From Patescibacteria group bacterium (GTDB taxonomy: Bacteria > Patescibacteriota > Dojkabacteria > J137), in assembly GCA_016861265.1 (NCBI GenBank), contig BOLA01000001.1, positions 203,569 to 267,568 on the forward strand: a stretch of 64,000 nt of DNA, written 5' to 3'. This document shows positions 1 to 29,443 of this stretch, piece after piece. Position numbers and translations under genes: made by a program. How positions within the stretch are numbered: position 1 is the stretch's first letter; every line of letters begins with the position of its first letter. Under the pieces are notes generated by a model that saw only the letters and a list, made by a program, of their open reading frames with translations, ran no database searches and was not told the DNA's origin.

Positions 1-72
1 GTAACCCAGCTTGTATCTATAATTTCTTCATTATTTTCTACTTGTGTATCTACAGAAGTTGGATCTGACATA
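1..72 (-). CDS. partial CDS, N-terminus only (reverse-complement reads MSDPTSVDTQVENNEEIIDTSWV...); hypothetical
   Basis: ATG at 70-72 on the minus strand with an open frame running off the window edge; not in the ORF track because it is truncated. Confidence 0.3.
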
Positions 73-94
73 GATTGCTTTTAAAAAGTTAATA

Positions 95-129
95 TAATCA
101 TATTATTTTCTTGTGAGCAGAATTGTCAA
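95..129 (-). promoter_or_regulatory. possible sigma70-like promoter for the minus-strand gene starting at 72
   Basis: minus strand reads TTGACA (plus 124-129), a 17-18 nt spacer, then TAATAT/ATAATA upstream of the ATG. Confidence 0.3.
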
Positions 130-130
130 T

Positions 131-152
131 AAAAAACCTCCCGAAAGGGAGG
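131..152 (-). terminator. rho-independent terminator of the rplU-rpmA operon
   Basis: stem CCTCCC-GAAA-GGGAGG at 137-152; on the minus strand it is followed by TTTTTT (plus 131-136), 25 nt downstream of the rpmA stop. Confidence 0.8.
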
Positions 153-176
153 TTTAAATTCTTAAATCAATTTGGC

Positions 177-470
177 TTATTCAGCCTTTGCCTCTTCTTC
201 TCTAACTGCCTCAGGTAAAATATCTACATATTTCTGAGTTCTCTTATAGCCAGTCATTCTTCTAAAGTGAACATAACCATCTTCTTTTGCGAATATGGTA
301 AAGTCTCTTCCTATTGAAGCATTTTTACCTGGGTAAAATTGTGATCCTCTTTGTCTAACAATAATTTCACCTGCGTTTACTTTTTGACCACCAAATCTTT
401 TAATACCAAGTCTCTTGCCTGGTACATCAACTGTTCTTTTTGCGGAACCTGTAGCTGCGGAATGTGCCAT
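177..470 (-). CDS. rpmA: 50S ribosomal protein L27
   Basis: 97 aa; N-terminal AHSAATGSAKRTVDVPGKRLGIKRFGG and IIVRQRG..GRDFTIFA match the L27 family signature. Confidence 0.95.
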   Translation of the reverse strand: MAHSAATGSAKRTVDVPGKRLGIKRFGGQKVNAGEIIVRQRGSQFYPGKNASIGRDFTIFAKEDGYVHFRRMTGYKRTQKYVDILPEAVREEEAKAE

Positions 471-489
471 ATATTAATAATTAACAGTA

Positions 490-804
490 TTAAAATTTAA
501 TAGATAACACTTTAAACTTTGTTACCTGTTTTCTAAATCCTCTTTTTCTTCTATATCTTGATTTTGCCTTGAAAATTCTACTTGTAACTTTTTCACCCTT
601 TTCATGACTTAAAACCTCAATTTCAACAGCAGCTTTATCTAAAACTGGTGCTCCAACTGAAATATCCGAACCTTCTCCAGCAGCTAAAACATCTGCTAGT
701 TTGATCTTTCCAACTTCAGCACTGAATTTTGGTAATTCATATTCTTTTCCTTCTTCAAGAGTGTATTGACTTCCACCCAATTTTATAATCGCAAATTTAC
801 TCAT
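490..804 (-). CDS. rplU: 50S ribosomal protein L21
   Basis: 104 aa; FAIIKLGGSQY start and the basic RYRRKRGFRKQ C-terminal region are typical of L21; adjacent to rpmA. Confidence 0.9.
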   Translation of the reverse strand: MSKFAIIKLGGSQYTLEEGKEYELPKFSAEVGKIKLADVLAAGEGSDISVGAPVLDKAAVEIEVLSHEKGEKVTSRIFKAKSRYRRKRGFRKQVTKFKVLSIKF

Positions 805-900
805 AATTTCTTAGTTAAAATAGCTCACGAATGATAATATAAAATCGACAAAAGTACAAGTGCAATTGAAAAAAACTTTGCATTAACATAGACTGTATTT

Positions 901-1674
901 ATGAGCAATTCCTACGAAATAGACAGTCTGAAAGACCTACTAAACTTTGACTATAAAACCGAAGATATTTATTCTGTTCAAGGCAGAATGAGAGCCCTAA
1001 TAGAGTACTACAAAATTAACTCGGAATTAGCCTGTTTGCGTGACTTTCTAAAAGTATACTGCCTAGTTACCGAAAAGGTTGTGGATTCAAGATTTCAGCA
1101 AGATAAATACTTCTCAAATGTAAGAGAATTAAATAAATTAGATGTAATCTTTTGCCACTATTACTTTAGAGCAGTAAAAGAATATGTAATGCATGGAGCA
1201 ACAATTTCCCCATGGGTTAATAGCTTTAGAATAAGCAGTGAACATAATGCTCCATTTATTAATGTTTTAATGGGTATAAATTCTCATATAAACGGAGATC
1301 TACCTATTTGTTTACTGGATATGAATTTTAAGAGTAAAGGTGACTTTGATAAAGTAAGTTCAATATTGTATGCAGTAATTCCTAGCGTATTAAGCTATTT
1401 AGCATTCGAACGAATGGACTTTTATGGAGCATTTGGACTGTTGGCAAAGAAATTTATTGAAGATGAGTTTAATACCCTTATAGTCAAATGGAGATCAAAT
1501 GCCTACAATAATTACAATAAATTGAAAAATTCCAAGAATACATCGAAGGATATTAAATTTATTAAAGAATCCACTGAAACCATTTCTGAAAACATATATA
1601 ATATCTTTAAAAATGAAGTTTTAAATCCTATAAATTTAATAAACGATCTAAATAAATTAGAAGTTATCTTATGA
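901..1674 (+). CDS. hypothetical protein
   Basis: 257-aa ORF at host-like codon usage; no motif I recognise. Confidence 0.5.
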   Translation: MSNSYEIDSLKDLLNFDYKTEDIYSVQGRMRALIEYYKINSELACLRDFLKVYCLVTEKVVDSRFQQDKYFSNVRELNKLDVIFCHYYFRAVKEYVMHGATISPWVNSFRISSEHNAPFINVLMGINSHINGDLPICLLDMNFKSKGDFDKVSSILYAVIPSVLSYLAFERMDFYGAFGLLAKKFIEDEFNTLIVKWRSNAYNNYNKLKNSKNTSKDIKFIKESTETISENIYNIFKNEVLNPINLINDLNKLEVIL

Positions 1675-2867
1675 CTTTAAGCCAAGACATACTTAGAAAA
1701 ATGCTGGAGCTACCGCACAGAATGGCGGGTACTACTTACGAACAGAAGGCAGCTGAATACATAAAAAATGTTTACGCCTACTTCGGTGTAACCGCAAAAG
1801 AAGTTCCTTCTTCTACTCTATCTCACAGTTTTCAAAACCACCTAATAATAAGTTTTGCATTAATAATGCTTACAATAGTGGTTAATTTTTTAGGAATAGC
1901 ATTAATAACAATTCCTTTATTTATATTTACAGTTCTTGTTTATTTAAGATTATTTAACTTGCCGTTTAGATTTTTTAAGAAGAGAACACAATCTCAAAAT
2001 ATTTATGCTGAAATACCTGCAAAAGACAAGCAAAAGTACACACTGGTTTTCACTAGTCACTACGATACAAGCGGCGATTTAGGCCCTCTGGTATCGATTT
2101 TAGGGCCAATATATAACTATATGCGTACATCCTCAGGGTTAAATATTCCTGAATACTTAAATAACGTACTAATTTTACCGAACTTATCTTTAGGATTAAC
2201 ATTGTTAGCACTATTCATTCCAGATAATTCCGCTAAGTTTTTCTTCGGCATTTTTGCGGCTATACCACTACTGACAGGGATTTTCTTCTTGAACAAGAGT
2301 AAAAAGAAACCTACACTGGGAGCCTACGATAACGGAGTAGGAACATCGTTATTAGTTGAACTTGCGGCGTTCTTTAATAAAAATCCGCTTGATAATACAA
2401 GACTGATTTTTGCAAATGTTGCAGCAGGAGAAACCTTAACAAGGGGAACTATACCATTGCTCAATTCACTAAACTTGGAAAAGGTTAATACATTTATTGT
2501 AGACCTTGAATGCATAGGTGAGGAACAACTTACACTAGTAAGTAGTGAGCCATCCTACCCTATTGGCTTACCTGTTCCTTTTGATTCAACATTCGAAGTA
2601 ATTGCAGATTTTGCCCAGGATTTTTTTCAGGATGATTTTAAGGTTGTTGACTCTCCATTACCTAGCGCAAACCAGGACCTAATTATAAATGGATATAGAG
2701 TCACGGCTATTGTTACTACTATGCCAAAAAATGGTTATCCTAAAAGGTTTCACTCCTCCAAGGACTATTTTGAGAGTATAAAATGGGATAAAGTAGAAAA
2801 TATTAGAGACTTTATTATCGGTTACTGTAGCTATTTTGATGATGTAAGCAAGGAAGTAATACTTTAA
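1671..2867 (+). CDS. membrane-anchored M28-family-like zinc peptidase (putative)
   Basis: TM helices at the N-terminus; FTSHYDT and AYDNGVGTSLLVELA resemble M28 aminopeptidase metal-binding motifs (H.D ... DNG.G..LLEL); 4-nt overlap with the upstream ORF. Confidence 0.5.
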   Translation: MTLSQDILRKMLELPHRMAGTTYEQKAAEYIKNVYAYFGVTAKEVPSSTLSHSFQNHLIISFALIMLTIVVNFLGIALITIPLFIFTVLVYLRLFNLPFRFFKKRTQSQNIYAEIPAKDKQKYTLVFTSHYDTSGDLGPLVSILGPIYNYMRTSSGLNIPEYLNNVLILPNLSLGLTLLALFIPDNSAKFFFGIFAAIPLLTGIFFLNKSKKKPTLGAYDNGVGTSLLVELAAFFNKNPLDNTRLIFANVAAGETLTRGTIPLLNSLNLEKVNTFIVDLECIGEEQLTLVSSEPSYPIGLPVPFDSTFEVIADFAQDFFQDDFKVVDSPLPSANQDLIINGYRVTAIVTTMPKNGYPKRFHSSKDYFESIKWDKVENIRDFIIGYCSYFDDVSKEVIL

Positions 2868-3847
2868 TATAGCGTTACTAAACAAATTTCCGCATCTGTA
2901 TTAATTCTTAACCTGCTGCCAGAATGTCCAATACCCTGAGATAGTAGCAGCTTTGTATTTTTGTTAATCTGGAATATACCTTTAGTTAACCATCTTCTTT
3001 TAGTAGGCATAGGAAGAACTGCTCCAATTATAGGCATATAAATCTGACCGGAATGATTATGGCCGCTCAGAATTAAATCTATATTGTCATTTTCTGAAAT
3101 AAAATCGATTACATCTGGGTTATGCGATAAAAGTATATTTACGGCGCCTTTCTCTGAACCTTCAAATGCCTTTTCAATATTAAATGTTTTTGAATATAGA
3201 TCAGGAATTCCTGCGATATTTAATTTAGTTCCGCTAATTGTTTGAATTGTATTATTGTTAATTAACAGTTGAATATTTGATTTTGAAAATGCATTAATAA
3301 ATTCTGTTGGAATATTATATTCGACCTTATCTTCTAGATACTCTGCATCGTGATTACCGTAAACTGCATAGACCCTCCCTTTTATATTTTTTAGTTGCTC
3401 TAATAGTTCCGGCTCTATGTCGTGAGTTAAAAAATCTCCTCCTAGCAATACTAAATCCTGATTTTGATTGTTAATTGTCTGAATAATCTTGTTAAGTCTT
3501 TTAGTGTTAGTACTCGCATATTCCTTGCCTACATGAAGATCGCTTACAAACAAGAATTGAACTTCTTTTTTTAGCCCTATATCGATTTTATATTCATTAA
3601 TTTTTATTCTATAAAACTTAATAAAAATGTAATAAAAAAAGAAGAGCTGTAATGAGAATAAAATTACTGAGAGTATAAGCAACTGCGATGAAAGAGAAAA
3701 AGCAAAAGTAATAAAGATTACAAATAACCCAGAAATCAATCCCGAGAAATCAATTGTAGGTCCCATTAACTTACGAAATCTTGCCATTGCACCTTTTCTT
3801 GGCATTAAAACAAGCTTATCTATATTTTCTTTTGAAAATCTATCCAT
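2864..3847 (-). CDS. membrane-anchored calcineurin-like metallophosphoesterase
   Basis: signature motifs DLHVG, GGDF, GNHD and SGHNHSG in order; N-terminal TM segments. Confidence 0.75.
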   Translation of the reverse strand: MDRFSKENIDKLVLMPRKGAMARFRKLMGPTIDFSGLISGLFVIFITFAFSLSSQLLILSVILFSLQLFFFYYIFIKFYRIKINEYKIDIGLKKEVQFLFVSDLHVGKEYASTNTKRLNKIIQTINNQNQDLVLLGGDFLTHDIEPELLEQLKNIKGRVYAVYGNHDAEYLEDKVEYNIPTEFINAFSKSNIQLLINNNTIQTISGTKLNIAGIPDLYSKTFNIEKAFEGSEKGAVNILLSHNPDVIDFISENDNIDLILSGHNHSGQIYMPIIGAVLPMPTKRRWLTKGIFQINKNTKLLLSQGIGHSGSRLRINTDAEICLVTLY

Positions 3848-3940
3848 AGTTTTTAGTGTGAACCAGGATATTTTATAGTTGTTTGAAGTTTATGTAAACA
3901 GAAAGTACATGGCGGGGGTGTTTATTCCCCGCCACATTTG

Positions 3941-3953
3941 CTGAATGAACTAC
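3941..3953. repeat. left 13-bp inverted repeat (CTGAATGAACTAC) at the island boundary; overlaps the stop codon of the 3950-5068 gene
   Basis: exact reverse-complement match to 8274-8286. Confidence 0.7.
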
Positions 3954-5068
3954 TGATTGAAGCAGGAACGAATCTCTGCTTCGCTGGGTAGGTCGTAGAA
4001 GTTGTATGTTAGTACCCCTTGATTTATTGCCCTATCCCGCTGATTCTCCATTCGATCATAAAATCCTACAGCCCACCAGAATGGACCATTGAACCCAAAA
4101 CTTTCGCCAAATTCCTGCATAAATTGACAGGTACCGGCGTAGTAACGAGTCTGTGCTGAGAAATCACGTCTTCCTCCATTGTTACCATTCCATGGTGTAA
4201 TGAAGGAACCAACCCGAGGAGTCACACCTACCTCCGCAAACATTATCGGCATATTGAGCCGATCGTGGTAACTGCGGAGATATGGTAACCACTCTTGCCA
4301 TGCATAGTAAATGTCCGTTGATGTGGCATCGTTGCCAATGCCATGTAGATCAAAGAACGCATCCACCATTAACACGTCAAGAGAAGGTGCAAACCCCGGT
4401 AACTCAGAAACTGGCGTCCAGTTCTTCGCGTATGTTACATTCCCGGAATACACTGCACGAACGCTCGCAATTAGCTGATTCCATCTATCGGTGTACCTTT
4501 GCTGGTCCTTATCAAGAGATTCCATCTCTGCACCGATAATTAACCCTAGCGCGCGTTCTTCTTCCGCTATCGCTGCATATTTAAGGATTAGGGCTCCGTA
4601 ATTGGCGAACCATTCGTCCAGTGCAGCATCGTTAAAATCACCACCCGGTACAATTGCACCTCGCCACGTCCCGGTTCTTTCGTCGTCTATGAGAGGCTTA
4701 AGCCAGACATAGTATCCTCTTGACCTTCCCTCCCGAAGAAAGATACGAATGTTTTCCTCGGATGGTGTAAGCAGAGGATCTTCATACAGAACCGTTGTTG
4801 TGGCTCCGTCTTGAAAGATCGGGAATGTAAAGATAATTGAGTTTACCCCCAATTCCCTACTATCAAGATCATCGAAAAACGCGACTGTATTGCCCTGCAT
4901 GGTAGTATCGTTCCCATACAGAACAACCGATATCCCTTTTTGATAGGGGATTTGCGTCCCGATTGGAATTGGATTGTACTCTTCTGTTGGAGGGCCTTCT
5001 TGGGCATTCACTGGCAATGGAGCCAGTGCGATCACCAGTAGAATTAGAATACTGAGAATCCTAAGCAT
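3950..5068 (-). CDS. secreted protein, putative glycoside hydrolase / polysaccharide-processing enzyme (TIM-barrel-like)
   Basis: cleavable signal peptide MLRILSILILLVIALAPLPVNAQE; aromatic- and acidic-rich; last gene of an operon with the GT2 synthase. The hydrolase call comes from context and composition only. Confidence 0.4.
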   Translation of the reverse strand: MLRILSILILLVIALAPLPVNAQEGPPTEEYNPIPIGTQIPYQKGISVVLYGNDTTMQGNTVAFFDDLDSRELGVNSIIFTFPIFQDGATTTVLYEDPLLTPSEENIRIFLREGRSRGYYVWLKPLIDDERTGTWRGAIVPGGDFNDAALDEWFANYGALILKYAAIAEEERALGLIIGAEMESLDKDQQRYTDRWNQLIASVRAVYSGNVTYAKNWTPVSELPGFAPSLDVLMVDAFFDLHGIGNDATSTDIYYAWQEWLPYLRSYHDRLNMPIMFAEVGVTPRVGSFITPWNGNNGGRRDFSAQTRYYAGTCQFMQEFGESFGFNGPFWWAVGFYDRMENQRDRAINQGVLTYNFYDLPSEAEIRSCFNQ

Positions 5069-5089
5069 TTGACCTCCAGAGGAGGGGTT

Positions 5090-6517
5090 TTACCCCTCCA
5101 TATTATCGCCCTTGTGATGTGTCTTCGACCAGCCTTGTGCAGCCTTGTTGGATTTCAGGAACTGATAGACTGCCACATAACCGGCTATTGAAATCAGCAG
5201 CCAGTAAAGTGGAGCAAACAGTCCCATTATCACATTCGAGTAGTTCTTCGTTCTGAATGCGGCAGTCTTAAGCATGTACACGTACATGTAGTTTCCCGCC
5301 GAGAAACAGAACATTGCCACGTAGAAAATAAGCGGAGGATAGAGCTGCTGAATAAACTCTGAGTGGGTAACAGCATAGATAGCCGTCATTCCCCAAAACA
5401 CAGGGTTTACCAGGTAAAGTACAAGCGGCGCACCAATAACGTACTGAAACCCGACAAAGCCTTTCCAACCAAGTTCTTGCTGAAGCCTGATTGGGTTACG
5501 CATATGTCGGAAGTACGTTTGGATAGCCCCCTTTATCCATCTACTCCGCTGTTTTACCATATCGAAAGCATTCTCGACAGCTTCTTCTGACGTGATCGAG
5601 TCGAGAACCAATGTGCTATAACCGAGTCTCGCAAACTTAACAGCGAGATCCATGTCTTCCGTTACGTTGAGGGAATCCCAACCTCCCACCTCGCGTATTG
5701 CACTAGTGAGAATGTAGTTGGAGGTTCCTCCAAGAGGTGACACCAACCCTAGTCGAGTTAGTCCGGGCAGCATTATTGAGAAATGCTGCAAGTAGTCCAG
5801 ATTCAACATCCTGGTAACCCAGGAACGATTAGCGTTTTGACTGAACGCAAGACGTGCCTGAACGCAGACCAGATGTGGATTATTGACCACTTCTCGGAAG
5901 TAGCTAACCATTGCCTTTCTGGGCTGCAATTTATCGGGCTTGTCTTCACTGTCAAATACGACGGTAAAATCGCTTCGCCAGTGAACGTAACCCTGGTCGA
6001 ACAGGTAGTTCATTGCCGCAGGTTTGGTCTTGGCCCCTCCTTTCGGACGAACAATAACCTTGAAATGCTTTGGAAGAGCAAGCTGAGTATATGCCTCGAT
6101 TGTGGCAAAATCCCCCTCTTCCAATACGATTAGAACCTGCATACGATTCTTCGGATAGTTCAGCTCCCATATGCTTTTAACAATTTGGCGAGCCACTGCT
6201 GGTTCCACATATGACGGAACAATCACGGTGATGTACGGAAATTCGTTAAGAGCTAATGCCTCTGAGTCATCAACTGCCACTAAGCTTCCTTCCTTCATGC
6301 CACTGACAGCGACAATGGAGGAAAATACGAACATTGAAGCGAAGAACAGTGTTGACAACGCTACGAATCCCTGCAAGTACTGTAGGAGTGTTAGCTGTAA
6401 CACCAACCCCAACATCACCGATCCTATACCCAGTGCAACAATGAAGCCCAGTTGAGACTTGCTCATACGAACTTCTGCACCAGGCCCGAATACTGCCCCC
6501 GAATTCAATTGATCCAT
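5090..6517 (-). CDS. processive family-2 glycosyltransferase (cellulose / PNAG / chitin-synthase-like polysaccharide synthase)
   Basis: N-terminal TMs, catalytic core with VVFDSEDKPD (DxD), GGTSNY, VTEDMDLA (TED) and QRSRWIKG (QxxRW), then C-terminal TM helices. Confidence 0.85.
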   Translation of the reverse strand: MDQLNSGAVFGPGAEVRMSKSQLGFIVALGIGSVMLGLVLQLTLLQYLQGFVALSTLFFASMFVFSSIVAVSGMKEGSLVAVDDSEALALNEFPYITVIVPSYVEPAVARQIVKSIWELNYPKNRMQVLIVLEEGDFATIEAYTQLALPKHFKVIVRPKGGAKTKPAAMNYLFDQGYVHWRSDFTVVFDSEDKPDKLQPRKAMVSYFREVVNNPHLVCVQARLAFSQNANRSWVTRMLNLDYLQHFSIMLPGLTRLGLVSPLGGTSNYILTSAIREVGGWDSLNVTEDMDLAVKFARLGYSTLVLDSITSEEAVENAFDMVKQRSRWIKGAIQTYFRHMRNPIRLQQELGWKGFVGFQYVIGAPLVLYLVNPVFWGMTAIYAVTHSEFIQQLYPPLIFYVAMFCFSAGNYMYVYMLKTAAFRTKNYSNVIMGLFAPLYWLLISIAGYVAVYQFLKSNKAAQGWSKTHHKGDNMEG

Positions 6518-6532
6518 GTTGTCTGCCTTGTC

Positions 6533-8233
6533 TTATTGCGCTAACTTGTAGATGTGATAGAGTTCGTTTTCAAAGACCAAGACGTAATGGTCAATGAAAG
6601 ATTGCTGATTCCGAACAGTTGTCCATACACGATCTTCAGCAAAACCGGAGTATGGGCCTCTCATTACAATCCACTCCATCTGATTTGCATATGGAGCGTT
6701 TAGAACTGGTTCCCAAAGTCGATATGTACCCTCGTAAGTTATGTTTCCAAGGTTAATACCGCTTAGGAACTGTAGCTGCTCATTTCCGTAGGCTTCCAAC
6801 AACATTGTCCCGTTATCGTAGTTATCACCCAGCCATTCAGCAGCCTCTATTTGAAGCTGGCTGAACACGTAGGATGATGCACGTTGTGGTTCGATTAGTG
6901 TTGTAATCCCCGGATCCTGAAACAGTGCAAACTGCGAGAAGAGTACACAACCTCCAACAATAACTGCCAGCACTCGGCTTCTCCTAACTAAGTAACCCAC
7001 CATTGGGGCCACAGTCAGAATTATGATGAGTGCAAAGCGAATGTTGTAGAGAGTGTCCTCTGTCTGCATAACCTGCATGGGTCTTTGACCTTTGTAGATC
7101 ATAAACCCGAAGAACGGGATCATCACCAATGGCAGTAACGGAGCAAATGATTCCCTACGCAATCTGGTTGAGACCACGTAAATGAATAGACCTATTACAG
7201 CCAATACAACCACCATGCCAATGGTATCCCAGATCCCCCACCCGTAGGTCAGGAAAGCAACCCTAAGGTTTCCAAACCCGGCTTCTCTTCCCGAAACCCA
7301 ATTGCTGGGTGAGGAATAGGTACCGTTTTGAAACTCCAAAGGGTTACCAAAGATTGTCATATTCCAGACAATCCAGCCTATGACTCCGGCTAGTGCAACA
7401 AAACCCCACTCAGCCAGATGTCCCACTAGGTCCCAGAAGCGCACTCTGTTGCGAAGTAACACGTATGTGTAGATAGCAGCTTCCGCCACCACAATTACCC
7501 ATCCTTCGTAACGGATGGTACACATAATCACGCTTGCTACTCCATTCCAGAAGAGCCACTTATGGTTTGACGGTTCCTTACAAAGTTTCCAGAACGTGTA
7601 CATCGACAGCAATACCCCAAAATACATGGGAATTTCCGTCATTGATGTACTTTGCAGATACAGTACGTTTGGGTTGAGCATCAATACCATCCATGCGATT
7701 ACAGCGGCATATGTGCTATTAGTCAGTTCAAAGACGAACTTGAACATGTAATAGCCCATGACCAAATAGCAGAACATGGATACTGCGATCATTCCCAAGC
7801 CATGCGAGTAAAAGACGTTAGTCCGCAAAACACCCACAGTAAGCAGGTAGAGAGTCGTACAAATACCAATTACCACCCACCGAAACAATACAGTCCAACC
7901 TTTAAGCAGTCGGCGAATTGCAACAATGGACAGAACCAGTCCAAGTGCCAAAAAGATCGATCCGTATATGGTGTTTGACCAGATATCGGAGCAAACCAAT
8001 GGCAGACTTGCCAAATGGGTCAACGGTAGCCATACTGCCCCTAGCTGTGCAAGCCCGGGTGATGTACTATCGCAAACCCTGCGAGCGATCAATAGATGTG
8101 CCTGTGTATCGAAGTGGAGAAATCCCACATCGTTAACAGTCACAAGGGTAAAGCATACTACCGACAGCAGAAATGCAACTGCCATCAGAGTAGGCACGAT
8201 CCTTCTGGGCATTTGCCCAATACCTTCATTCAT
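6533..8233 (-). CDS. polytopic integral membrane protein (about 12-14 TM; possible GT-C-fold glycosyltransferase or polymer export/modification protein)
   Basis: 566 aa with many hydrophobic helices; GGAGG Shine-Dalgarno 8 nt upstream of the ATG; first gene of the island operon. Confidence 0.55.
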   Translation of the reverse strand: MNEGIGQMPRRIVPTLMAVAFLLSVVCFTLVTVNDVGFLHFDTQAHLLIARRVCDSTSPGLAQLGAVWLPLTHLASLPLVCSDIWSNTIYGSIFLALGLVLSIVAIRRLLKGWTVLFRWVVIGICTTLYLLTVGVLRTNVFYSHGLGMIAVSMFCYLVMGYYMFKFVFELTNSTYAAVIAWMVLMLNPNVLYLQSTSMTEIPMYFGVLLSMYTFWKLCKEPSNHKWLFWNGVASVIMCTIRYEGWVIVVAEAAIYTYVLLRNRVRFWDLVGHLAEWGFVALAGVIGWIVWNMTIFGNPLEFQNGTYSSPSNWVSGREAGFGNLRVAFLTYGWGIWDTIGMVVVLAVIGLFIYVVSTRLRRESFAPLLPLVMIPFFGFMIYKGQRPMQVMQTEDTLYNIRFALIIILTVAPMVGYLVRRSRVLAVIVGGCVLFSQFALFQDPGITTLIEPQRASSYVFSQLQIEAAEWLGDNYDNGTMLLEAYGNEQLQFLSGINLGNITYEGTYRLWEPVLNAPYANQMEWIVMRGPYSGFAEDRVWTTVRNQQSFIDHYVLVFENELYHIYKLAQ

Positions 8234-8273
8234 TTTCAGAACCTCCTCAGGTCTGTTTTATGATTTTCTTATG

Positions 8274-8286
8274 TAGTTCATTCAGT
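8274..8286. repeat. right 13-bp inverted repeat (GTAGTTCATTCAG) at the island boundary, about 40 nt upstream of the operon start
   Basis: exact reverse complement of 3941-3953. Confidence 0.7.
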
Positions 8287-8464
8287 TGTAAACGAACCTG
8301 TGATGAACAAGATTCATTCACATTAGCGCTGATTTTACCATAAAACAGGTGTACATTGCTATATAAAAGCTATATAGGATAATTAAAGTACCCCTCCTAT
8401 TTTCTACTTGAAATTACAATACTAAAAGTTAGATAATCACGAGCTTACCCTTTTAAAAACTTTT

Positions 8465-9334
8465 ATGGATACATTAACAATACCCGACGGACTTGAAGTA
8501 GCGAGAGTTAAATCCGAGAAACTATCTGCAGAACCAAACTTTTTAGAGTATCTAGAATTTACCGACAGAAAGATTAATCAAATCTGCTACGAAGTTTTGC
8601 ACAATATTATAAAAGCAGTGGGAGAAGGCCGCACAGTGAATTTAATTGTCCCCTTGAACGGAGGTTTGCTTTTCTATAGAAAACTAATGGAATTGTTCAG
8701 CAATCTCGAACTTTCTACTAATGCATTAAACATTATTTTCTGTGATGAAGACGAAAGTGACAGATTACTTTTTTCACAGGAACCGTTAGATGTTACTAAT
8801 GCATACAACATTGTAATAGACGATATCTGGGATAAAGGAGGTACCGGAAGCGAAATAATCGAGGAGCTAAGAACATTTGGAGCCGTAGATACATTGGATT
8901 ATTTCGCATTCTGCCGAAAAGAAAGCTCTCCAACCCAGAACAATGGTGCCAGATTAGCAAATATGGATTCAGTAACTATATTCGAAGATAGGTGGTTACA
9001 CAACTGGGGAGGAATGAACAGCAGTCTTTTTAAAGATAGACCTAGGGTCACGGCACTAGAACGTACAAGTTTTCTGCCGCTCGTACCTTTACCTGAGTAC
9101 TTACAAGTAAAATTTAATACTCAAGATCCATTTACTGTTGATGCCTATATGGATTTGTTGACACAAACTAATTTAGCTGTAAACGGTGTAATACCTATTG
9201 AGGTATTTAACGATGTATTATTCCTTGAAGAAAACCCAAGTCTTGTAACAAGATTCGACTACATGACCAAACTACATGCAAGAATTGCTCAATCTATTGA
9301 AACTAGTAAAATAAAAGTGGATAGAGAAGGTTAA
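8465..9334 (+). CDS. phosphoribosyltransferase-fold (PRTase type I) domain protein
   Basis: NLIVPLNGGLLF and IVIDDIWDKGGTGSEI match the PRPP-binding loop pattern (V.DD..DTG.T). Confidence 0.5.
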   Translation: MDTLTIPDGLEVARVKSEKLSAEPNFLEYLEFTDRKINQICYEVLHNIIKAVGEGRTVNLIVPLNGGLLFYRKLMELFSNLELSTNALNIIFCDEDESDRLLFSQEPLDVTNAYNIVIDDIWDKGGTGSEIIEELRTFGAVDTLDYFAFCRKESSPTQNNGARLANMDSVTIFEDRWLHNWGGMNSSLFKDRPRVTALERTSFLPLVPLPEYLQVKFNTQDPFTVDAYMDLLTQTNLAVNGVIPIEVFNDVLFLEENPSLVTRFDYMTKLHARIAQSIETSKIKVDREG

Positions 9335-9346
9335 TAATCAAAATTT

Positions 9347-9375
9347 TTGTTAAAATCATTATAGATAAATATATA
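9347..9375 (+). promoter_or_regulatory. possible promoter for proS
   Basis: TTGTTA, 17 nt, TATATA; an AAGGA ribosome-binding site 2 nt before the ATG. Confidence 0.3.
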
Positions 9376-9389
9376 TTAACGACCCAAGG

Positions 9390-11084
9390 ATGAGATATTC
9401 TGCAATGTTTGGCAAAACACAGAAAGATGCACCAAGCGATGCAACACTGAGCTCGCACAAATTACTACATAAAGGAGGCTTTATTAGAGAGTCTACCGCA
9501 GGCAGATATTATATGTTGCCCTTGGGAATAAGAGTGCAGCAAAAAATAATTAATGTAATAAGAGAGGAAATGGATAAATCAGGCGCACAAGAGTTAATTA
9601 CTCCTGTTTTACATCCTTTAGAATTATGGCAAGAAACTAACAGAACAAATACAACAGGATTTGAGTTATCAGTTATTACTGATAGAAGAGGGGCTAAATT
9701 TGCGTTAGGTGGAACTGCAGAAGAGATGATGGTTGACTTAGTTAGGAAGTTTCAAATCAGCTATAAAGATCTACCATTTAACATTTATCAATTTTCTACT
9801 AAATTCAGAGACGAACTAAGAGCAAGAGGAGGACTATTAAGGGTGAGAGAATTTATAATGAAAGACGCGTATTCGTTTAGTACTGATGAAGATCAGTTCA
9901 AAGCTGAATACAAAAATATGTGGGAAACATATTTAAGGATTTATAGAAGATTAGGATTGGAACCATTGGTTGTAGAAGCTGATAATGGTTACATTGGAGG
10001 AGAGTATTGTCATGAATTTCAGGTTGAAAGTGAGATTGGAGAAGGAAAATTTTTTATAAGCGAAGACGGACAATACGTAGCTCATGAAGATGTAGCTAAA
10101 TTTATTGTAGAAGATAAAAATATTAACGAAGATCTAAAAGAGATGCAAGAGGTTGAAGCCATTCGAGGCAACACAATGGAAGATGGAGTAAAGCTACATG
10201 GCTTACCGGATTGGCAACAAATGAAAGATGTAATGTTTACCGATTCGGAAGGAAAACTTTACTTAGCTGTAATCAGAGGCGATTTAGACGTAAATAAAAC
10301 CAAGCTAGAGCACGTATTAAATAAAGTAGGACAACTAGACTCTGCAACTGAAGAACAGATTAGAGAAATAGGCAGCGAGCCTGGATTTATTTCACCAGTG
10401 GGTTTGGAAGGCAAAGTGTTCATAGTTACAGATAAATCAGTTAGAACTGTTCATAACTTTTACGGAGGCTCAAATAAAAAGCATAGAGATATTCTTAATA
10501 TTAATATAGATAGAGATTTTAAAGCTGACCTTGAAGCAGATATTGCATTAGCTCAAAATGGATTTGAATCTATTGATAGCCACGGAAAATTAATTGAGAA
10601 AAGAGGAATTGAAGTTGGAAATATTTTTCAGTTAGGTTATCACTATACTACATTAATGAACAACTCGACTTATACAGATGTAGATGGCGAACAAAAAAAA
10701 TATTATATGGGTTGTTATGGAATTGGAGTAGGTAGAACATTAGCAACAATTGTAGAAAAATACCACGATGATAAAGGTATTATCTGGCCAGAAGAAATAG
10801 CACCTTATACTGTCCATCTTATCGGCTTAAATCTTGAGGATGAAGCCATAAAGAGTAAAGCAGAAGCAATTTACCAAGTATTACAGAAAATGGGAGTAGA
10901 AGTGTTGTTTGACGATAGAACAGATACAATGGCTGGTGAAAAATTTGCAGATTCAGATTTAATAGGAATTCCCTATAGAGTTGTTGTTTCAAAAAGAACT
11001 GGTGAGGGAGTAGAGCTAAAATTAAGAAATCAAAAGGAATCTAAGAATATTTCCCTTGAGGAATTAGTGGAAACACTTAAGTAA
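9390..11084 (+). CDS. proS: prolyl-tRNA synthetase
   Basis: 564 aa; class II aaRS motifs; the N-terminal SHKLLHKGGFIRESTAGRYYMLPLGIRV region is typical of bacterial ProRS. Confidence 0.95.
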   Translation: MRYSAMFGKTQKDAPSDATLSSHKLLHKGGFIRESTAGRYYMLPLGIRVQQKIINVIREEMDKSGAQELITPVLHPLELWQETNRTNTTGFELSVITDRRGAKFALGGTAEEMMVDLVRKFQISYKDLPFNIYQFSTKFRDELRARGGLLRVREFIMKDAYSFSTDEDQFKAEYKNMWETYLRIYRRLGLEPLVVEADNGYIGGEYCHEFQVESEIGEGKFFISEDGQYVAHEDVAKFIVEDKNINEDLKEMQEVEAIRGNTMEDGVKLHGLPDWQQMKDVMFTDSEGKLYLAVIRGDLDVNKTKLEHVLNKVGQLDSATEEQIREIGSEPGFISPVGLEGKVFIVTDKSVRTVHNFYGGSNKKHRDILNINIDRDFKADLEADIALAQNGFESIDSHGKLIEKRGIEVGNIFQLGYHYTTLMNNSTYTDVDGEQKKYYMGCYGIGVGRTLATIVEKYHDDKGIIWPEEIAPYTVHLIGLNLEDEAIKSKAEAIYQVLQKMGVEVLFDDRTDTMAGEKFADSDLIGIPYRVVVSKRTGEGVELKLRNQKESKNISLEELVETLK

Positions 11085-11136
11085 TTGACCAAATTAACCT
11101 AATAAAGTTATTATCAAAGTAATTTAGTTAATACTT

Positions 11137-11616
11137 ATGTCACGCTTACCTGAACCCAAAGATAACATAGACCTATATAGATTTAGCCGGAGTAAATCGG
11201 GGAAATTAATACACACTTATATTGAAGCGGGCTTACTATCTAACGAAGATTTAAATAATCAAGATGTAATTGATTTTATAAATAATTCTGAACTTTGGAC
11301 ACTAACGGGATTATCAGTGGGCGACGAAGTCTTTATAGTTGATGATATTAATCCTAGACAAATGATTAGAGCAAAAGTTGTATACGCGGGAAGCTTTGTT
11401 ACCCTAGCATATAACGACAAGACTCTTGTTAACACCCCAGGAGTCAGCCTAAAGGCTAGACACTCATTTCCTAGAAATTTACTGCAAAGGGGTATACAAG
11501 CAGTACTACCTATGCATATAGACATTATTGATTTAGCCTCAACTCAAAAAATCTTCAGAGTTATAAATGAGGAAGTTGTCGAAAATAATGAGCCAAGATT
11601 TATATTGGAAGCTTAA
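11137..11616 (+). CDS. hypothetical protein
   Basis: 159-aa ORF; no recognisable domain. Confidence 0.45.
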   Translation: MSRLPEPKDNIDLYRFSRSKSGKLIHTYIEAGLLSNEDLNNQDVIDFINNSELWTLTGLSVGDEVFIVDDINPRQMIRAKVVYAGSFVTLAYNDKTLVNTPGVSLKARHSFPRNLLQRGIQAVLPMHIDIIDLASTQKIFRVINEEVVENNEPRFILEA

Positions 11617-13464
11617 TTACTTTCTAAAATTTACTAAAGATTTAGTATCTAATACCTCGAACTTATCCACATAGGTTCTCATCCACATTTCTGTAATAAA
11701 GACTCTCCAGAAGAATAAAACATCTCCCTTAATTTTATTTTCCAGAGCAAGTTTAAAGTTCTGTAGTACTAAGTCAGCCTTCCAAAACGGCCTGGATTTA
11801 AAAGTATCGGATTCGAATACATCTATAAACTTTTGTTGCCTTCGTTCTATCCATTCCCATTCAGGGTTTGTAAAACCAATTTTACTTCGTCTTAATCTGT
11901 TTTTCTCAGGAATTAGGCCTTTCATAGCTTCTCTATAGATATGTCTTGTCCAACCATTCTTTATCTTTTGATCAATAGGCAAATTAAAAATATATTCCAC
12001 AACCATGTGGTCGAAGAAAGGAACCCGGGACTCAAGAGAGTTCGCCATTGAATTCTTGTCTTCATACCTTAAAAGCGATGGTGTAGTCAAGGATGTAACG
12101 TCCTCAAACAATCTTTTATTTAGATTTCTAGTTGCCTGTGGTCTTATGAACTCAGTATTATTTGTATTTACAATCATCTGATTAGGATTGATTGTATTTT
12201 CTTTTTTGAGTTTTTGTATTAACTTATCCACAAAGAATTTAGTGTACAGATCTTTTCCTGCGACTGTTTCTCTGAATGCTTCCAGAACTTTTCCGTTATC
12301 GATTGCACTTTGCAAGTAGGTCATAAAGTAAGGAATATAACCGGCCAGAAGCTCATCGCCGCCTTGACCAGTTAGTAGTACAGTTACATGTTTTCTAGCT
12401 TCCCTCATTACCGTGTAGTAAGCATATGGTGCAGTACTAATTACAGGTTCTTCTTGAAAATATACCCAATTATCCATTTCATTCCAGAAGTTACCCACAT
12501 TTGGAGTCATTTTAATTGATTCAACTCCAGTAGCTTCCACAATATTGTCTATGTATTCTTCCTCGTTTATTGTTTCTCCCGGATGAACTGCGGAAAATGA
12601 GTAAAGTTTTGTATCAGGATGATTCTCTTTATATAATTTTGCTGCAATTGAAGTAATTCCACTTGAATCAAGTCCACCCGATAATGTTACTCCAACAGGT
12701 ACATCTGCTATTAAATGTAACTTTATTGCCTCAATAAAAATATCTCTAAACTCTTTCGAATATTCCGCATCTGATTTTTCTGAAGCAAACTTTGTTGAGT
12801 AAGTCGGATTCCAATACTTCTCTATTTGAAACTCTCCTGTATTATTAATTACCATATAGTGACCTGGCAGTAGTCTCTTTATATTCTTAAAAAATGTATC
12901 TTGATTTGTATCGTGAATTCTAGCAGTTAAAAATTTATACAGTGAATCCTGGTCAACTTCTCGATTAATATTAAATCCAGAGAGTAAACCCTTAATTTCT
13001 GATCCGAATACTACTCTACCGTCCACCTGAGTATAATATAGTGGTTTAATACCGAGTCTATCTCTTGCGATAAAGAGTTCATCCTTTTTCTTATTGTATA
13101 AAACAATCACAAACATTCCTCTTAAATGGTTTACTACTTTTTCACCCCATTCTTCGTACCCATGCGCAATAACTTCAGTATCAGATTCACTACTAAAGTT
13201 ATGGCCTAACTCTTCAAGCTCTTCTCGCAGTGCTTGATAATTATAAATCTCTCCATTATTCATTACCTGAATTGTTTTATCTTCGTTTGTTAGTGGATAT
13301 AGACCCATTGTAAGGTCAATAATTGCAAGTCTTCTATAACCCACCGAAAAATTATCATTCACTACTCTTCCACCGTCATCGGGACCTCGGTGAAATATAG
13401 ATTCAGTCATTTTATCTAGAGTTTGATTATCTGGTTTGCCCGAAAAGCCAACAATTCCGCACAT
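11617..13464 (-). CDS. asnB: asparagine synthetase (glutamine-hydrolysing)
   Basis: MCGIVGF Ntn-amidotransferase start and the SGGLDSS PP-loop. Confidence 0.9.
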   Translation of the reverse strand: MCGIVGFSGKPDNQTLDKMTESIFHRGPDDGGRVVNDNFSVGYRRLAIIDLTMGLYPLTNEDKTIQVMNNGEIYNYQALREELEELGHNFSSESDTEVIAHGYEEWGEKVVNHLRGMFVIVLYNKKKDELFIARDRLGIKPLYYTQVDGRVVFGSEIKGLLSGFNINREVDQDSLYKFLTARIHDTNQDTFFKNIKRLLPGHYMVINNTGEFQIEKYWNPTYSTKFASEKSDAEYSKEFRDIFIEAIKLHLIADVPVGVTLSGGLDSSGITSIAAKLYKENHPDTKLYSFSAVHPGETINEEEYIDNIVEATGVESIKMTPNVGNFWNEMDNWVYFQEEPVISTAPYAYYTVMREARKHVTVLLTGQGGDELLAGYIPYFMTYLQSAIDNGKVLEAFRETVAGKDLYTKFFVDKLIQKLKKENTINPNQMIVNTNNTEFIRPQATRNLNKRLFEDVTSLTTPSLLRYEDKNSMANSLESRVPFFDHMVVEYIFNLPIDQKIKNGWTRHIYREAMKGLIPEKNRLRRSKIGFTNPEWEWIERRQQKFIDVFESDTFKSRPFWKADLVLQNFKLALENKIKGDVLFFWRVFITEMWMRTYVDKFEVLDTKSLVNFRK

Positions 13465-13706
13465 AAAAGAAAGTTAATATTAATATTCCATAATACAATA
13501 TAGTTACTCAACGTGTACACCCTGCGCAATTTCATTCTTACCGGTTCTAAACTTCCAGATGTAGATAACAATTAAGAACCCTACAATAGGAATAATAATA
13601 ACAAGCGGATTAATATTTGAGTTCTGATCCTGTTGTTCTCACTACCCTCTGCGAATCCATTTTGATGAAAATACTTGGCTACAGCTTTATTCGTGATTTA
13701 TAGTAT

Positions 13707-13714
13707 TGTATAAT
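13707..13714 (+). promoter_or_regulatory. extended -10 element (TGTATAAT), candidate thrS promoter
   Basis: TGnTATAAT match about 120 nt upstream of the thrS ATG. Confidence 0.35.
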
Positions 13715-13837
13715 CGAACAAATGAAGAAATTAAGAATTGCCTTCACAACTACTACAACTACAACCCCATAAGGGGGTAAAATATCTACGTATAAAAATT
13801 CTATACACACTCATTTTAATTAACTATTAACCAATAT

Positions 13838-15592
13838 ATGGATAAAGACAATTTATATAAAATAAGGCATTCGGCAGAACACGTATTCGCACAGGCCGTA
13901 AAGGAATTGTATGGAGAGGACGTTCAACTAGCAGTTGCCCATATTTCCGATACAGGTTTTTCTAACGATGCAAAGTGGTCAGTAAAATTATCAGAGGACG
14001 ATTTTCCAAAGATTGAAAAAAAGATGCAAGAAATAATTGATGCTAACCTGCCAATTGTTCAAAAGGAAGTTACACGAGAGGAAGCTAAAGAAATGTTTAA
14101 AAATAATCCTTTCAAGCTAGAATGGATTGAGCAATGGGACGCGGCAGAAAAGACATTAACCGTTTACTGGACCGGAGATAAATATGTAGACTTCTGCAAA
14201 GGTCCACACGTAAATTCAACAGGTGAAATCAAAGCCTTTAAACTTTTAAGCGTTGCTGGAGCATACTGGAGAGGTGATGCAAACAATGAAATGTTAACAA
14301 GAGTTTATGGAACTGCTTTTGGCTCTAAAGCTGAACTAGATGAATACCTAAATTTATTAGAAGAAGCTAAAAATAGAGATCATAGAAAATTAGGAAAAGA
14401 ATTAGGTTTGTTTACATTCTCAGATCTTGTTGGTTCAGGATTACCAATGTTTACACCTAAGGGAACTTTTTTATGGCAAGAACTAGCTAGCTATTCTGAG
14501 TCTTTACAGAAGGCGGCTGGTTTTGAACAGGTAAAAATTCCTCATATAACAAAAACTGATTTATATAAAACTTCAGGACATTGGGATAAATTTGGTGATG
14601 AATTATTTTTAGTAAAAAGCCAGGAAACTGATGACCAGATGGTTTTAAAACCAATGAATTGTCCGCACCACACTCAAATTTATGCAAGTGCAAAAAGAAG
14701 CTATAGAGATTTACCTATTAGATATTACGAAACTACAACCAACTATAGAGACGAAAAAGCAGGTGAATTATCTGGATTATCAAGAGTTAGATCTTTAACT
14801 CAAGACGATGCTCACGTATTTTGTAGAATAGATCAAATTGAAGGTGAATTTACAATTATAATGGGAATGATTAAAAAGATGTATGCATCCTTAGGGCTAG
14901 AATTTAGGGCTAGACTTTCTTTTAGAGATCCTGAAACACCGGAAAAATATTTAGGCGATGAAGAGACTTGGGCAGAAGCACAAAGAACAATCGAAGATAT
15001 TGCTAAAAAATTAGAAGTTGACTACTTTGTAGCAATTGGCGAAGCAGCTATTTATGGGCCTAAAATCGATATTATGGTTAAAGATTCACTAGGGAGAGAA
15101 TGGCAATGTGCTACTGAACAATTGGACTTTATTCAGCCAACAAGATTCGGTCTTAAGTATACCGACTCAGATGGACAGGAAAAGACACCTGTAATGATTC
15201 ATAAAGCATTATTGGGTTCAGTTGAAAGATTCTTATCTGTTTACATTGAGCATACAGCTGGTAACTTTCCTGTATGGTTAAGTTATACACAAGTTGCAGT
15301 ATTACCTATTTCAGCAGAAAAACATGCTGATTATGCATACAAAATTAAAGATACGTTAAGAGCTGCAGGAATTAGAGCCGATGTTGACGATGCCAGCGAA
15401 ACATTAGGCAATAAAATTAGAAAGGCACAATCACAAAAAACACCTTATGTATTTGTTGTGGGAGATAAAGAAGTCGAGAACAATACAGTAAGCGTTAGAG
15501 CCAGAGGAGGAAAAGATTTAGGTGCAATGAGTGTAAATGATATTTCGGAAAGAATAAAACAAAAAATAGAAGACAAGTCCATGGACCTATAA
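13838..15592 (+). CDS. thrS: threonyl-tRNA synthetase (lacks the N-terminal TGS domain)
   Basis: HRKLGKELGLF, the class II core, and editing-domain RHSAEHVFAQAV near the N-terminus. Confidence 0.95.
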   Translation: MDKDNLYKIRHSAEHVFAQAVKELYGEDVQLAVAHISDTGFSNDAKWSVKLSEDDFPKIEKKMQEIIDANLPIVQKEVTREEAKEMFKNNPFKLEWIEQWDAAEKTLTVYWTGDKYVDFCKGPHVNSTGEIKAFKLLSVAGAYWRGDANNEMLTRVYGTAFGSKAELDEYLNLLEEAKNRDHRKLGKELGLFTFSDLVGSGLPMFTPKGTFLWQELASYSESLQKAAGFEQVKIPHITKTDLYKTSGHWDKFGDELFLVKSQETDDQMVLKPMNCPHHTQIYASAKRSYRDLPIRYYETTTNYRDEKAGELSGLSRVRSLTQDDAHVFCRIDQIEGEFTIIMGMIKKMYASLGLEFRARLSFRDPETPEKYLGDEETWAEAQRTIEDIAKKLEVDYFVAIGEAAIYGPKIDIMVKDSLGREWQCATEQLDFIQPTRFGLKYTDSDGQEKTPVMIHKALLGSVERFLSVYIEHTAGNFPVWLSYTQVAVLPISAEKHADYAYKIKDTLRAAGIRADVDDASETLGNKIRKAQSQKTPYVFVVGDKEVENNTVSVRARGGKDLGAMSVNDISERIKQKIEDKSMDL

Positions 15593-15598
15593 TCAAAA

Positions 15599-15622
15599 GG
15601 GCAGCCTAGGCTGCCCTTTTTT
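15599..15622 (+). terminator. rho-independent terminator after thrS (also serves the convergent gene)
   Basis: GGGCAGCCTAGGCTGCCC hairpin followed by TTTTTT. Confidence 0.8.
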
Positions 15623-15631
15623 ATAACTATA

Positions 15632-16255: not shown

Positions 16256-16288
16256 AATTGTATTAATAACAAAGTTGTTTGGACTATT

Positions 16289-16297
16289 TTGGTATAA
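16289..16297 (+). promoter_or_regulatory. extended -10 (TGGTATAAT) candidate promoter for the dus gene
   Basis: perfect TGnTATAAT about 65 nt upstream of the ATG. Confidence 0.4.
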
Positions 16298-16360
16298 TCA
16301 ACACAGACAATTTTGTTATCAAAATGTACTCAATTATTCAAACAATAACAAATTTAAACA

Positions 16361-29442: not shown

Positions 29443-29443
29443 T

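Follow-up and report, generated by a model that had tools for sequence, protein, structure and literature searches.

A predicted xagBCD-like surface polysaccharide operon in a member of the Dojkabacteria

The xagABCD genes of Xanthomonas are needed for a biofilm polysaccharide of these bacteria (PMC3609779), whose biofilm can be dispersed with the beta-1,4-mannanase ManA (PMC8042644), and the stalk-forming iron oxidizers Ferriphaselus and Mariprofundus carry the cluster bcsB-xagB-xagC-xagD, whose members are candidate stalk genes (PMC4643136). A C. difficile locus that combines a BcsA-like synthase with a glycoside hydrolase of family 113 (GH113), WecB and CE4 was independently predicted to specify an exopolysaccharide rich in N-acetylmannosamine (ManNAc) (PMC7710045), and a three-component system for extracytoplasmic glycosylation has also been described (PMC13390465). 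The current report deals with a trio of genes at positions 3950-8233 of a 64,000-nucleotide (nt) stretch of DNA, referred to as a whole as "the window", from a Patescibacteria group bacterium (GTDB lineage Bacteria; Patescibacteriota; Dojkabacteria; J137; assembly GCA_016861265.1, contig BOLA01000001.1, positions 203,569 to 267,568 of the forward strand). We regard it as reasonably probable that the trio is a self-contained operon of the xagBCD type for a synthase-dependent surface polysaccharide, which was acquired anciently and has been kept by vertical inheritance, and whose product would be beta-linked and mannose-configured.

The three open reading frames (ORFs) lie on the minus strand at the coordinates given by an earlier reading of the DNA letters (here called the original prediction). 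Taken in the direction of the coding strand, the first gene (6533-8233, minus strand) encodes a membrane glycosyltransferase of 566 amino acids (aa) with a predicted GT-C fold, the middle gene (5090-6517, minus strand) a 475-aa synthase of glycosyltransferase family 2 (GT2), and the third gene (3950-5068, minus strand) a 372-aa GH113 glycoside hydrolase, and the gaps between them measure 15 and 21 nt. The threonyl-tRNA synthetase (ThrRS) encoded in the window shares 76-78% identity with proteins named Candidatus Dojkabacteria, on which account the host, which had been taken for a minimal and probably host-associated bacterium, can be assigned to the Patescibacteria, or Candidate Phyla Radiation (CPR). 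CPR bacteria combine very small genomes with a presumed life in attachment to other cells, and little is known about their surface polymers.

The synthase and the secreted hydrolase

The original prediction recognized in the 475-aa protein a set of processive-synthase motifs lying between bundles of transmembrane helices and the lack of a PilZ domain, and both observations have held up. The motifs are E133/D136, DSED at residues 189-192, TED at 286-288 and QRSRW at 323-327; all are invariant in a family alignment of 33 sequences, and the D, DxD, TED and QxxRW motifs align with those of BcsA. Pfam matches were obtained to Glyco_tranf_2_3 (E 1.7e-18) and Glyco_trans_2_3 (E 2.3e-14), and the alignment with Rhodobacter BcsA (E 4e-6) extends over residues 70-390 and includes the helices that follow QxxRW. 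In the AlphaFold2 model (predicted local distance difference test score, pLDDT, 91.4), two helices at the N terminus precede a GT-A domain, after which come an interface helix and a C-terminal helix bundle. The best Foldseek matches of the model in the PDB were hyaluronan synthases, BcsA, the archaeal membrane mannosyltransferase PcManGT, chitin synthases and plant CesA, with E-values from 6e-15 to 1e-8 and TM-scores of ~0.55-0.60. Searches with Pfam and NCBIfam detected neither a PilZ nor an MshEN domain, which suggests that the enzyme is not under the control of cyclic di-GMP (c-di-GMP). On its motifs, transmembrane helices and modeled fold, we classify the protein as a membrane-embedded synthase of the type represented by BcsA, the hyaluronan synthases, PgaC and the chitin synthases.

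By analogy with these enzymes, the GT2 protein would carry out processive synthesis and export of a polymer. Enzymes of family GT2 are inverting. The cytosolic GT-A domain of a synthase residing in the cell membrane would accordingly add nucleotide-sugar units with inversion, creating beta linkages, and the growing chain would be extruded through the enzyme's own helix bundle, as it is by BcsA, hyaluronan synthase and PgaC. The best NCBIfam models for the protein were PgaC_IcaA, which aligns to it from end to end (62.6 bits against a cut-off of 422.3), and CelA (50 bits against a cut-off of 699), and the PRK11498 model gave 37 bits against a cut-off of 992. Every NCBIfam score lies far under its cut-off, and membership among the cellulose, poly-N-acetylglucosamine (PNAG), NodC or EpsU synthases was rejected on this basis. 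Identification with BcsA proper was rejected on the scores of the CelA and BcsA models, the lack of a PilZ domain and the lack of a BcsB-like gene in the operon; identification with the PNAG synthase PgaC/IcaA was rejected on its score and on the genes next to it, which encode a GT-C enzyme and a GH113 protein.

The 372-aa protein, described in the original prediction as secreted and hydrolase-like, matches the Pfam GH113 model with 130.6 bits (E 9.5e-38; cut-off 27) and carries a Sec-type signal peptide with predicted cleavage between MLRILSILILLVIALAPLPVNA and QE. It matches the beta-1,4-mannanases 7dv7, 4cd6 and 3civ in the PDB with E-values of 1e-16 to 1e-15, and its alignments to characterized enzymes in general have E-values of 1e-16 to 1e-13 at low identity. 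The alignments indicate that the catalytic pair is kept, with E181 as the acid/base and E279 as the nucleophile, and the sequences GCEM and FMEVG align with GAEM and FAEVG of the solved mannanases. Judged by its sequence, the protein is a signal-peptide-bearing member of GH113, the beta-mannanase family, and it is probably XagD-like. All characterized GH113 enzymes act on beta-mannosidic bonds (PMC7710045). In the operon, the secreted enzyme would trim or release the polymer, by analogy with the roles that BcsZ, PslG and PssZ have elsewhere. Profile searches and structure prediction, which had been proposed as checks on the original prediction, place the fold of the GT2 protein nearest to the processive synthases and the 372-aa protein in a carbohydrate-active family. 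Neither of the two outcomes that the original prediction had named as counter-evidence, a grouping of the GT2 protein with non-processive lipid or teichoic-acid glycosyltransferases and a 372-aa protein without a carbohydrate-active fold, was observed.

The GT-C partner, the wider family and the predicted polymer

The 566-aa protein (here called the partner) had been described as a membrane protein with 14 transmembrane helices and as a possible GT-C glycosyltransferase, which agrees with its AlphaFold2 model (pLDDT 91.3, predicted TM-score 0.90). The model has ~14 helices in the membrane region, followed by a C-terminal extracytoplasmic alpha/beta domain at about residues 444-566. A significant match to it was not found among the sequences in the PDB. 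Of the matches that Foldseek found for the model in the PDB, the top 36 (E 6e-6 to 0.2) consist entirely of GT-C enzymes, among them STT3/OST, DPY19, ArnT, AftA, ALG12, Pmt4, PglB, EmbC and AftB. The first outer loop holds Asp42, which does not vary among 34-36 homologues and stands in the context D-x-x-(A/S)-H-L...R-R-V...G-x-x-Q-L-G-x-V-W-L-P, and the homologue alignment contains further invariant residues in the C-terminal extracytoplasmic domain. Going by the modeled structure, the protein is a GT-C-fold enzyme, and it is probably XagC-like. An insertion of ~50 aa that forms two helices (about residues 97-155) occurs in the Dojkabacteria clade only, being absent from the homologues in loci L007 and L009 (homologous loci are designated here by such numbers). 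The family profile matches positions 117-164 of the partner twice, a pattern which suggests that a transmembrane hairpin has been duplicated within the protein.

The close clade of the GT2 protein is small; its members are 52-60% identical and the trio is present in all of them. Beyond this clade, a scan of one genome per species found the GT2 family in at least 599 loci, in the Actinomycetota, Chloroflexota, several Patescibacteria, Proteobacteria, Bacteroidota and Bacillota, with identities of 40% or less among the matches listed. A close relative was sought in the GTDB species genomes, and none of the matches listed exceeded 40% identity. Many of the family members, including some that are 38% identical to the protein described here, carry the Joint Genome Institute (JGI) label "glycosyltransferase XagB", and many relatives have an N-terminal MshEN domain, which binds c-di-GMP. 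The genetic neighborhoods were surveyed in 80 sampled species loci outside the clade, by translating every ORF of the fetched loci and searching the translations with profiles. A GT-C partner was detected with an iterated profile near the GT2 gene, usually adjoining it, in 55 of the 80 loci at E<=1e-30 and in 70 at E<=1e-5; elsewhere in the window and in control loci, the same profile gave no stray matches. Independently of this profile, seven of 10 sampled partners matched Pfam PMT_2 or PMT, three of them above the cut-off. A strict regular expression for the N-terminal motif was discarded as a detection method, as it recovers one subfamily only; the other subfamily is backed by PMT_2 matches.

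In some relatives the partner is joined to other proteins. Single ORFs of the Chloroflexota (958-996 aa) fuse the GT2 enzyme to the membrane part of the partner in loci L045 (6209-9085) and L047 (7629-10505), further fusions of this kind are found in L053 (4256-7243) and L071 (7737-10727), and a GH113 gene lies directly upstream of the four fusion ORFs. Many other homologues of the partner, from Actinomycetota and Saccharimonadales, are fused to a GtrB-like GT2 domain and in some cases also to a GtrA flippase (L024 5065-7509, L025 1148-3946, L041, L042 and L054; proteins P0134-P0240); they are 30-36% identical to the partner. A PMT_2 match is present in many homologues of the partner. An example that combines GtrB-like, GtrA and partner regions is P0138, a 972-aa protein of the Saccharimonadales. 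GtrB and GtrA make up the classic supply line of polyprenyl-phosphate-linked sugars for GT-C enzymes. From their domain composition, these fusions appear to be three-component glycosylation systems contained in one polypeptide and placed beside the synthase.

The donor and acceptor that we propose for the partner are drawn from these homologous fusions. Acting on the outer face of the membrane, it would most likely decorate the emerging chain with sugar from a polyprenyl-phosphate-linked donor; a role in capping or anchoring the chain is less likely. The donor must be encoded elsewhere in the genome, given that no gene for its supply was found in the 64 kb when the window ORFs were searched with two queries, the GtrB-like domain and the N-terminal GtrB-plus-GtrA region of P0138.

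The same observations bear on two other ways in which the trio might work, both of which we consider improbable. According to the first, the trio would be a two-component system for surface glycosylation, in which a non-processive GT2 enzyme makes a glycolipid or a polyprenyl-phosphate sugar and the GT-C enzyme transfers the sugar to an envelope acceptor, much as GtrB/GtrC or CsbB/YfhO do, and the GH113 enzyme is engaged in unrelated trimming or scavenging. A GT-C enzyme needs a lipid-linked donor, and a separate gene of the GtrB-like kind is missing from the trio, so that the GT2 enzyme itself could be the donor synthase. Weak Pfam matches to Glyco_transf_21 (ceramide glucosyltransferase) in many homologues point in the same direction, as does the automated annotation of an xagB-like gene of the iron oxidizers as a beta-monoglucosyl-diacylglycerol synthase (PMC4643136). 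However, the fold of the GT2 protein is nearest to the channel-forming synthases, whereas the known donor synthases GtrB and DPMS are of the PF00535 type, and loci of the Actinomycetota carry a GtrB-like domain fused to the GT-C enzyme as well as an adjacent XagB-like GT2 gene, a coexistence which argues that the two GT2 enzymes are not redundant. Moreover, BcsB-like subunits, MshEN domains and polymer hydrolases go with the family, and xagB mutants lose the biofilm polysaccharide phenotype (PMC3609779).

According to the second and quite improbable scheme, the GT2 enzyme would polymerize on a polyprenyl-(di)phosphate primer and export the product, the GT-C enzyme would move the finished chain en bloc to protein, lipid or wall in the fashion of an oligosaccharyltransferase or O-antigen ligase, and the GH113 enzyme would set the chain length. 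The en-bloc transferases STT3 and PglB are indeed among the best Foldseek matches of the partner, a trio of this kind would be self-sufficient without a GtrB-like gene, and the near-universal adjacency of GT2 and partner genes as well as their fusions would suit a hand-over of the chain. Against this, the Foldseek scores of STT3 and PglB are not set apart from those of the monosaccharide transferases DPY19, ArnT and Pmt4, and homologues from the partner's own subfamily occur as fusions with GtrB-like and GtrA domains, a finding that speaks for a donor in the form of a monosaccharide-phosphate-lipid.

We return to a decorated, synthase-made polysaccharide to ask about the identity of its backbone. 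A GH113 gene is found next to or near the GT2 gene in nine of the 80 non-Dojkabacteria loci, in four phyla, and genes of the ManC type are found in four loci, namely L049 (a bona fide ManC), L091 (from a Geobacillus plasmid, with 241 bits on GMP_PMI), L028 and L031. The polymer is called mannose-configured here because of the GH113 gene in the operon and the ManC genes in related loci, and the ManNAc-rich product predicted for the C. difficile locus (PMC7710045) agrees with this. For the backbone, a beta-1,4-linked mannan, glucomannan or ManNAc-type glycan is the most likely candidate. Another polymer, with a beta-glucan, cellulose-like or N-acetylglucosamine backbone, might be made by the same machinery, in which case the GH113 enzyme would have a specificity new to its family; we view this as a possibility of some standing, yet clearly not the favored one. 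It draws on PgaC/IcaA and CelA as the best NCBIfam models for the GT2 protein, on the weak "Cellulase"-type hydrolases of family GH5 that replace GH113 in seven related loci, and on the fact that the motifs cannot separate the use of GDP-mannose from that of UDP-sugars. It is opposed by the very low scores of those two models relative to their cut-offs, by the beta-mannosidic specificity of all characterized GH113 enzymes (PMC7710045) together with the ManC genes in four related loci, and by the dispersal of the xag-dependent biofilm by the mannanase ManA (PMC8042644). A precomputed GH5_mannosidase label in L009 was given little weight, since Pfam gave weak "Cellulase" matches only.

The neighborhoods contain several other genes. 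BcsB-like genes flank the GT2 gene in ~20 of the sampled loci, and in the gammaproteobacterial loci L040 and L068 the order is BcsB-like gene, GT2 gene, partner gene and GH113 gene. The conjugative plasmid pEF60063-1 of Geobacillus stearothermophilus (L091 2982-9719) carries, one after another, genes for ManC-like, BcsB, MshEN-GT2 and GT39-family proteins between a transposase gene and an integrase gene, and this version of the system is mobile. Next to the trio in L006 (12742-17842) are genes for a GSDH-PKD-DUF1349 protein and a Big_1-like protein, which are 59% and 53% identical to proteins encoded near the GT2 gene in the actinomycetotal locus L024 (1112-4447 and 9212-11380), whereas the core genes of the two loci are 31-39% identical. 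The GSDH-type protein is present in seven loci and may be an accessory component.

Several points weigh against the interpretation that we favor. To our knowledge, no member of the GT2 family has been characterized biochemically, and for this reason the polymer, the processivity and the reaction of the partner are all inferred. The GT2 enzymes with a QxxRW motif include non-processive lipid glycosyltransferases. The Pfam PMT model matches the partner with 20.7 bits, under its cut-off of 22.7. A nucleotide-sugar gene, a GtrB-like gene or a GtrA gene was not found in the 64-kb window. The link to mannose is not family-wide, as GH113 genes are found in nine of the 80 loci outside the clade and ManC genes in four such loci only. 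The equivalence of the partner with XagC and of the GH113 protein with XagD is drawn from gene order and labels. Finally, an xagB-like gene of the iron oxidizers bears the automated annotation mentioned above (PMC4643136).

A more far-reaching proposal, which we put forward as doubtful, is that the pair of GT2 and GT-C enzymes stands for a large class of synthases in which the GT-C enzyme takes the place of BcsB, PgaD or Alg44 as an obligate co-subunit, is sometimes fused to the synthase and branches the chain at the exit of the channel. In the same vein, the product might be the first bacterial polymer of the beta-mannan type to be made by a cellulose-synthase-like enzyme, and might serve the Dojkabacteria as a glycan for host attachment.

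Boundaries, origin and upkeep of the predicted operon

Ribosome-binding sites of the GGAGG type precede the first and third genes, and the start codon at 8233 has GAGGAGG just ahead of its ATG. Upstream of the 566-aa gene, an AT-rich region of 231 nt contains a weak sigma-70-like sequence, TTTACA-18-GAAAAT (8263..8292, minus strand; nine of 12 matches), which counts as a candidate promoter only, because such sites are no more common in the region than in shuffled sequences. At the other end, 13 nt past the stop codon of the GH113 gene, begins a GC-rich hairpin with an 11-bp stem (3907-3937, minus strand; RNA folding energy -19.5 kcal/mol, z -3.74 relative to shuffles), which is followed by a U-rich stretch and is likely to be the intrinsic terminator of the operon. 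From the weak promoter-like site and the 3' hairpin only, we infer that the three genes are likely to be co-transcribed. The module differs sharply in base composition from its surroundings: its GC content is 46-47% and its GC content at third codon positions (GC3) 0.45-0.52, as compared to 30-37% and 0.14-0.31 for the flanking genes. The 1.5-kb windows outside the module have a mean GC content of 0.344 (standard deviation 0.019, maximum 0.40), which puts the module more than six standard deviations away, and the step in GC at both of its ends is well beyond chance.

The original prediction had taken the trio for the cargo of an imported island. The foreign composition and the import itself are borne out by the analysis, but a recent or mobile island is not. 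Neither an integrase gene nor flanking direct repeats nor a tRNA gene were found in the 64-kb window, and the neighbors of the module are housekeeping genes. In two further assemblies or species (L003 and L004/L005), the trio is present in unchanged order at the same syntenic site, between ThrRS, AsnB, prolyl-tRNA synthetase (ProRS) and PRT-like genes on one flank and Metallophos, M28, DUF5995, L21 and L27 genes on the other. An island-like nature is thus seen in composition only, and the synteny with L003 and L004 speaks for old vertical inheritance.

The trio proteins of the window are 55-66% identical to those of L003 and L004, which is similar to the 54-70% of the faster-evolving flanking genes; ProRS and AsnB are 80-88% identical across the assemblies, and the ThrRS of the window has 86% identity to that of L003. 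The three genomes are about equidistant from each other, for module and flanks alike, and a comparison of the window with L003 found the four-fold degenerate sites saturated in both module and flanks. The divergence of the syntenic copies and the saturation of these sites indicate that the import was ancient and that inheritance has since been vertical, and from such sequence comparisons we consider the module to be anciently acquired and vertically maintained.

The module has retained a GC content of 43-47% in all of its syntenic copies, as opposed to 29-35% in the flanks. A comparison of the GC content at four-fold degenerate sites (GC4) over window 3950-8233, L003 8274-12612 and L004 8312-12558 gave 0.34-0.46 for the module and 0.05-0.27 for the flanking genes (0.13-0.23 when the PRT-like gene is excluded). 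By a rough calculation, about one substitution per site per lineage leaves about a third of the original GC excess. The values fit an amelioration that has run half its course since import from a donor very rich in GC, with a GC3 near 0.9, and fit an import shortly before the species represented by the window, L003 and L004 split from each other. Selection may also act on the synonymous GC content of the module; as an explanation for the high GC it was set aside as unnecessary, since the rough estimate of decay fits the values. The closest relatives from outside have DNA of 57% GC (L007) and 66% GC (L024, from the Actinomycetota). In the distant Dojkabacteria loci L093 (10001-14129) and L094 (10001-14302), ThrRS is one gene away from L21 (plus L27 in L094), and the interval between ThrRS and L21 lacks ~11 kb of genes which lie between the two in the lineage of the window and which include ProRS, the trio, the Metallophos gene and M28. 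These loci were rejected as examples of an "empty site", since the region is rearranged and the comparison is not clean.

Within the species, a second contig (L001) has a nucleotide identity of 94.6% to the window and its comparison points to strong purifying selection on the genes. The two strains differ at 99 nt and 11 aa in the partner, and at 18 nt and one aa in the GT2 protein. The order of the trio has been kept through 44-66% protein divergence (L003, L004 and L006). From the purifying selection between strains and this conservation of order in spite of divergence, the genes can be taken to be functional and in use, and the maintenance of a complete operon under selection long after its import suggests that the polymer matters to the organism. 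Along positions 1-16514 of the window, the identity to L001 is a mosaic, ranging from 85% to 100% per 500-nt bin, which suggests that homologous recombination within the population is frequent.

Other features of the window include an RNase P RNA of class A (28980-29443, plus strand; 141 bits), which is the sole Rfam match in the window, and two long ORFs without a Pfam match. One of these (50757-53090, plus strand) encodes 777 aa from a GTG start, shows a mild rise in GC content (0.40) and is next to a gene for a 665-aa protein with Lamin Tail Domains. The other (17866-21804, minus strand) encodes 1312 aa.

Comparison with known systems

The trio resembles BcsA-BcsB-BcsZ in having a membrane-embedded GT2 enzyme with the D, DxD, TED and QxxRW motifs and a channel fold, together with a cognate secreted endo-hydrolase, and relatives of the trio in other phyla keep a BcsB-like subunit. 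It differs in that there is no PilZ domain, a GT-C enzyme stands in the place of BcsB as membrane partner and the hydrolase is of family GH113 rather than GH8. The lack of a BcsB-like subunit would fit a cell envelope with a single membrane. PgaC-PgaD, IcaA-IcaD and the class I hyaluronan synthases are similar to the GT2 protein in size (~450-500 aa) and in having a pair of N-terminal helices ahead of a GT-A domain and a C-terminal bundle after it, whereas the PgaD, IcaD and deacetylase proteins of the Pga and Ica systems have no counterpart in the trio.

With GtrA/GtrB/GtrC, CsbB-YfhO and GacI-GacL, the trio shares a GT-C enzyme that, in our reading, acts on a polymer outside the membrane, and homologues of the partner are found in fusions with GtrB and GtrA. 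Unlike the Gtr systems, neither the operon nor the 64-kb window has a GtrB-like or GtrA gene, and the adjacent GT2 enzyme is of the channel-forming synthase type. The C. difficile locus is alike in its pairing of a BcsA-like synthase with a GH113 enzyme and unlike in its WecB and CE4 genes, which the trio does not have. A GT-C partner has not been described for this locus or for the other ManNAc polymer systems, Listeria Pss and E. coli NfrB. The latter protein can be aligned with the GT2 protein over residues 151-475 and shares its C-terminal W-x-K-T-x-H motif, but it carries a C-terminal MshEN domain; it was considered as a close relative and rejected (21% identical, E 0.03).

The closest resemblance is to the xag clusters. 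The Dojkabacteria operon departs from them in its order (partner, GT2, GH113), in having neither XagA nor a BcsB-like gene, in its CPR host and in an identity of 40% or less to any member from outside the Dojkabacteria among the matches listed. In common with them, it has GT2 homologues that are labeled XagB at 38% identity, and the gene order in L040 and L068 is that of the published cluster bcsB-xagB-xagC-xagD, from which the partner, GT2 and GH113 genes can be read as xagC-, xagB- and xagD-like, respectively. These sequence comparisons suggest that the trio is a CPR-borne member of a widespread and already named xagBCD-like family, in which the xagB-like GT2 enzyme is usually accompanied by a GT-C partner, often by mannan-type hydrolases or ManC, and in which the partner is sometimes fused to a module for the supply of polyprenyl-phosphate sugars. 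Such an arrangement provides a testable model for the Xag polysaccharide of Xanthomonas as well as for the candidate stalk polysaccharide of the iron oxidizers.

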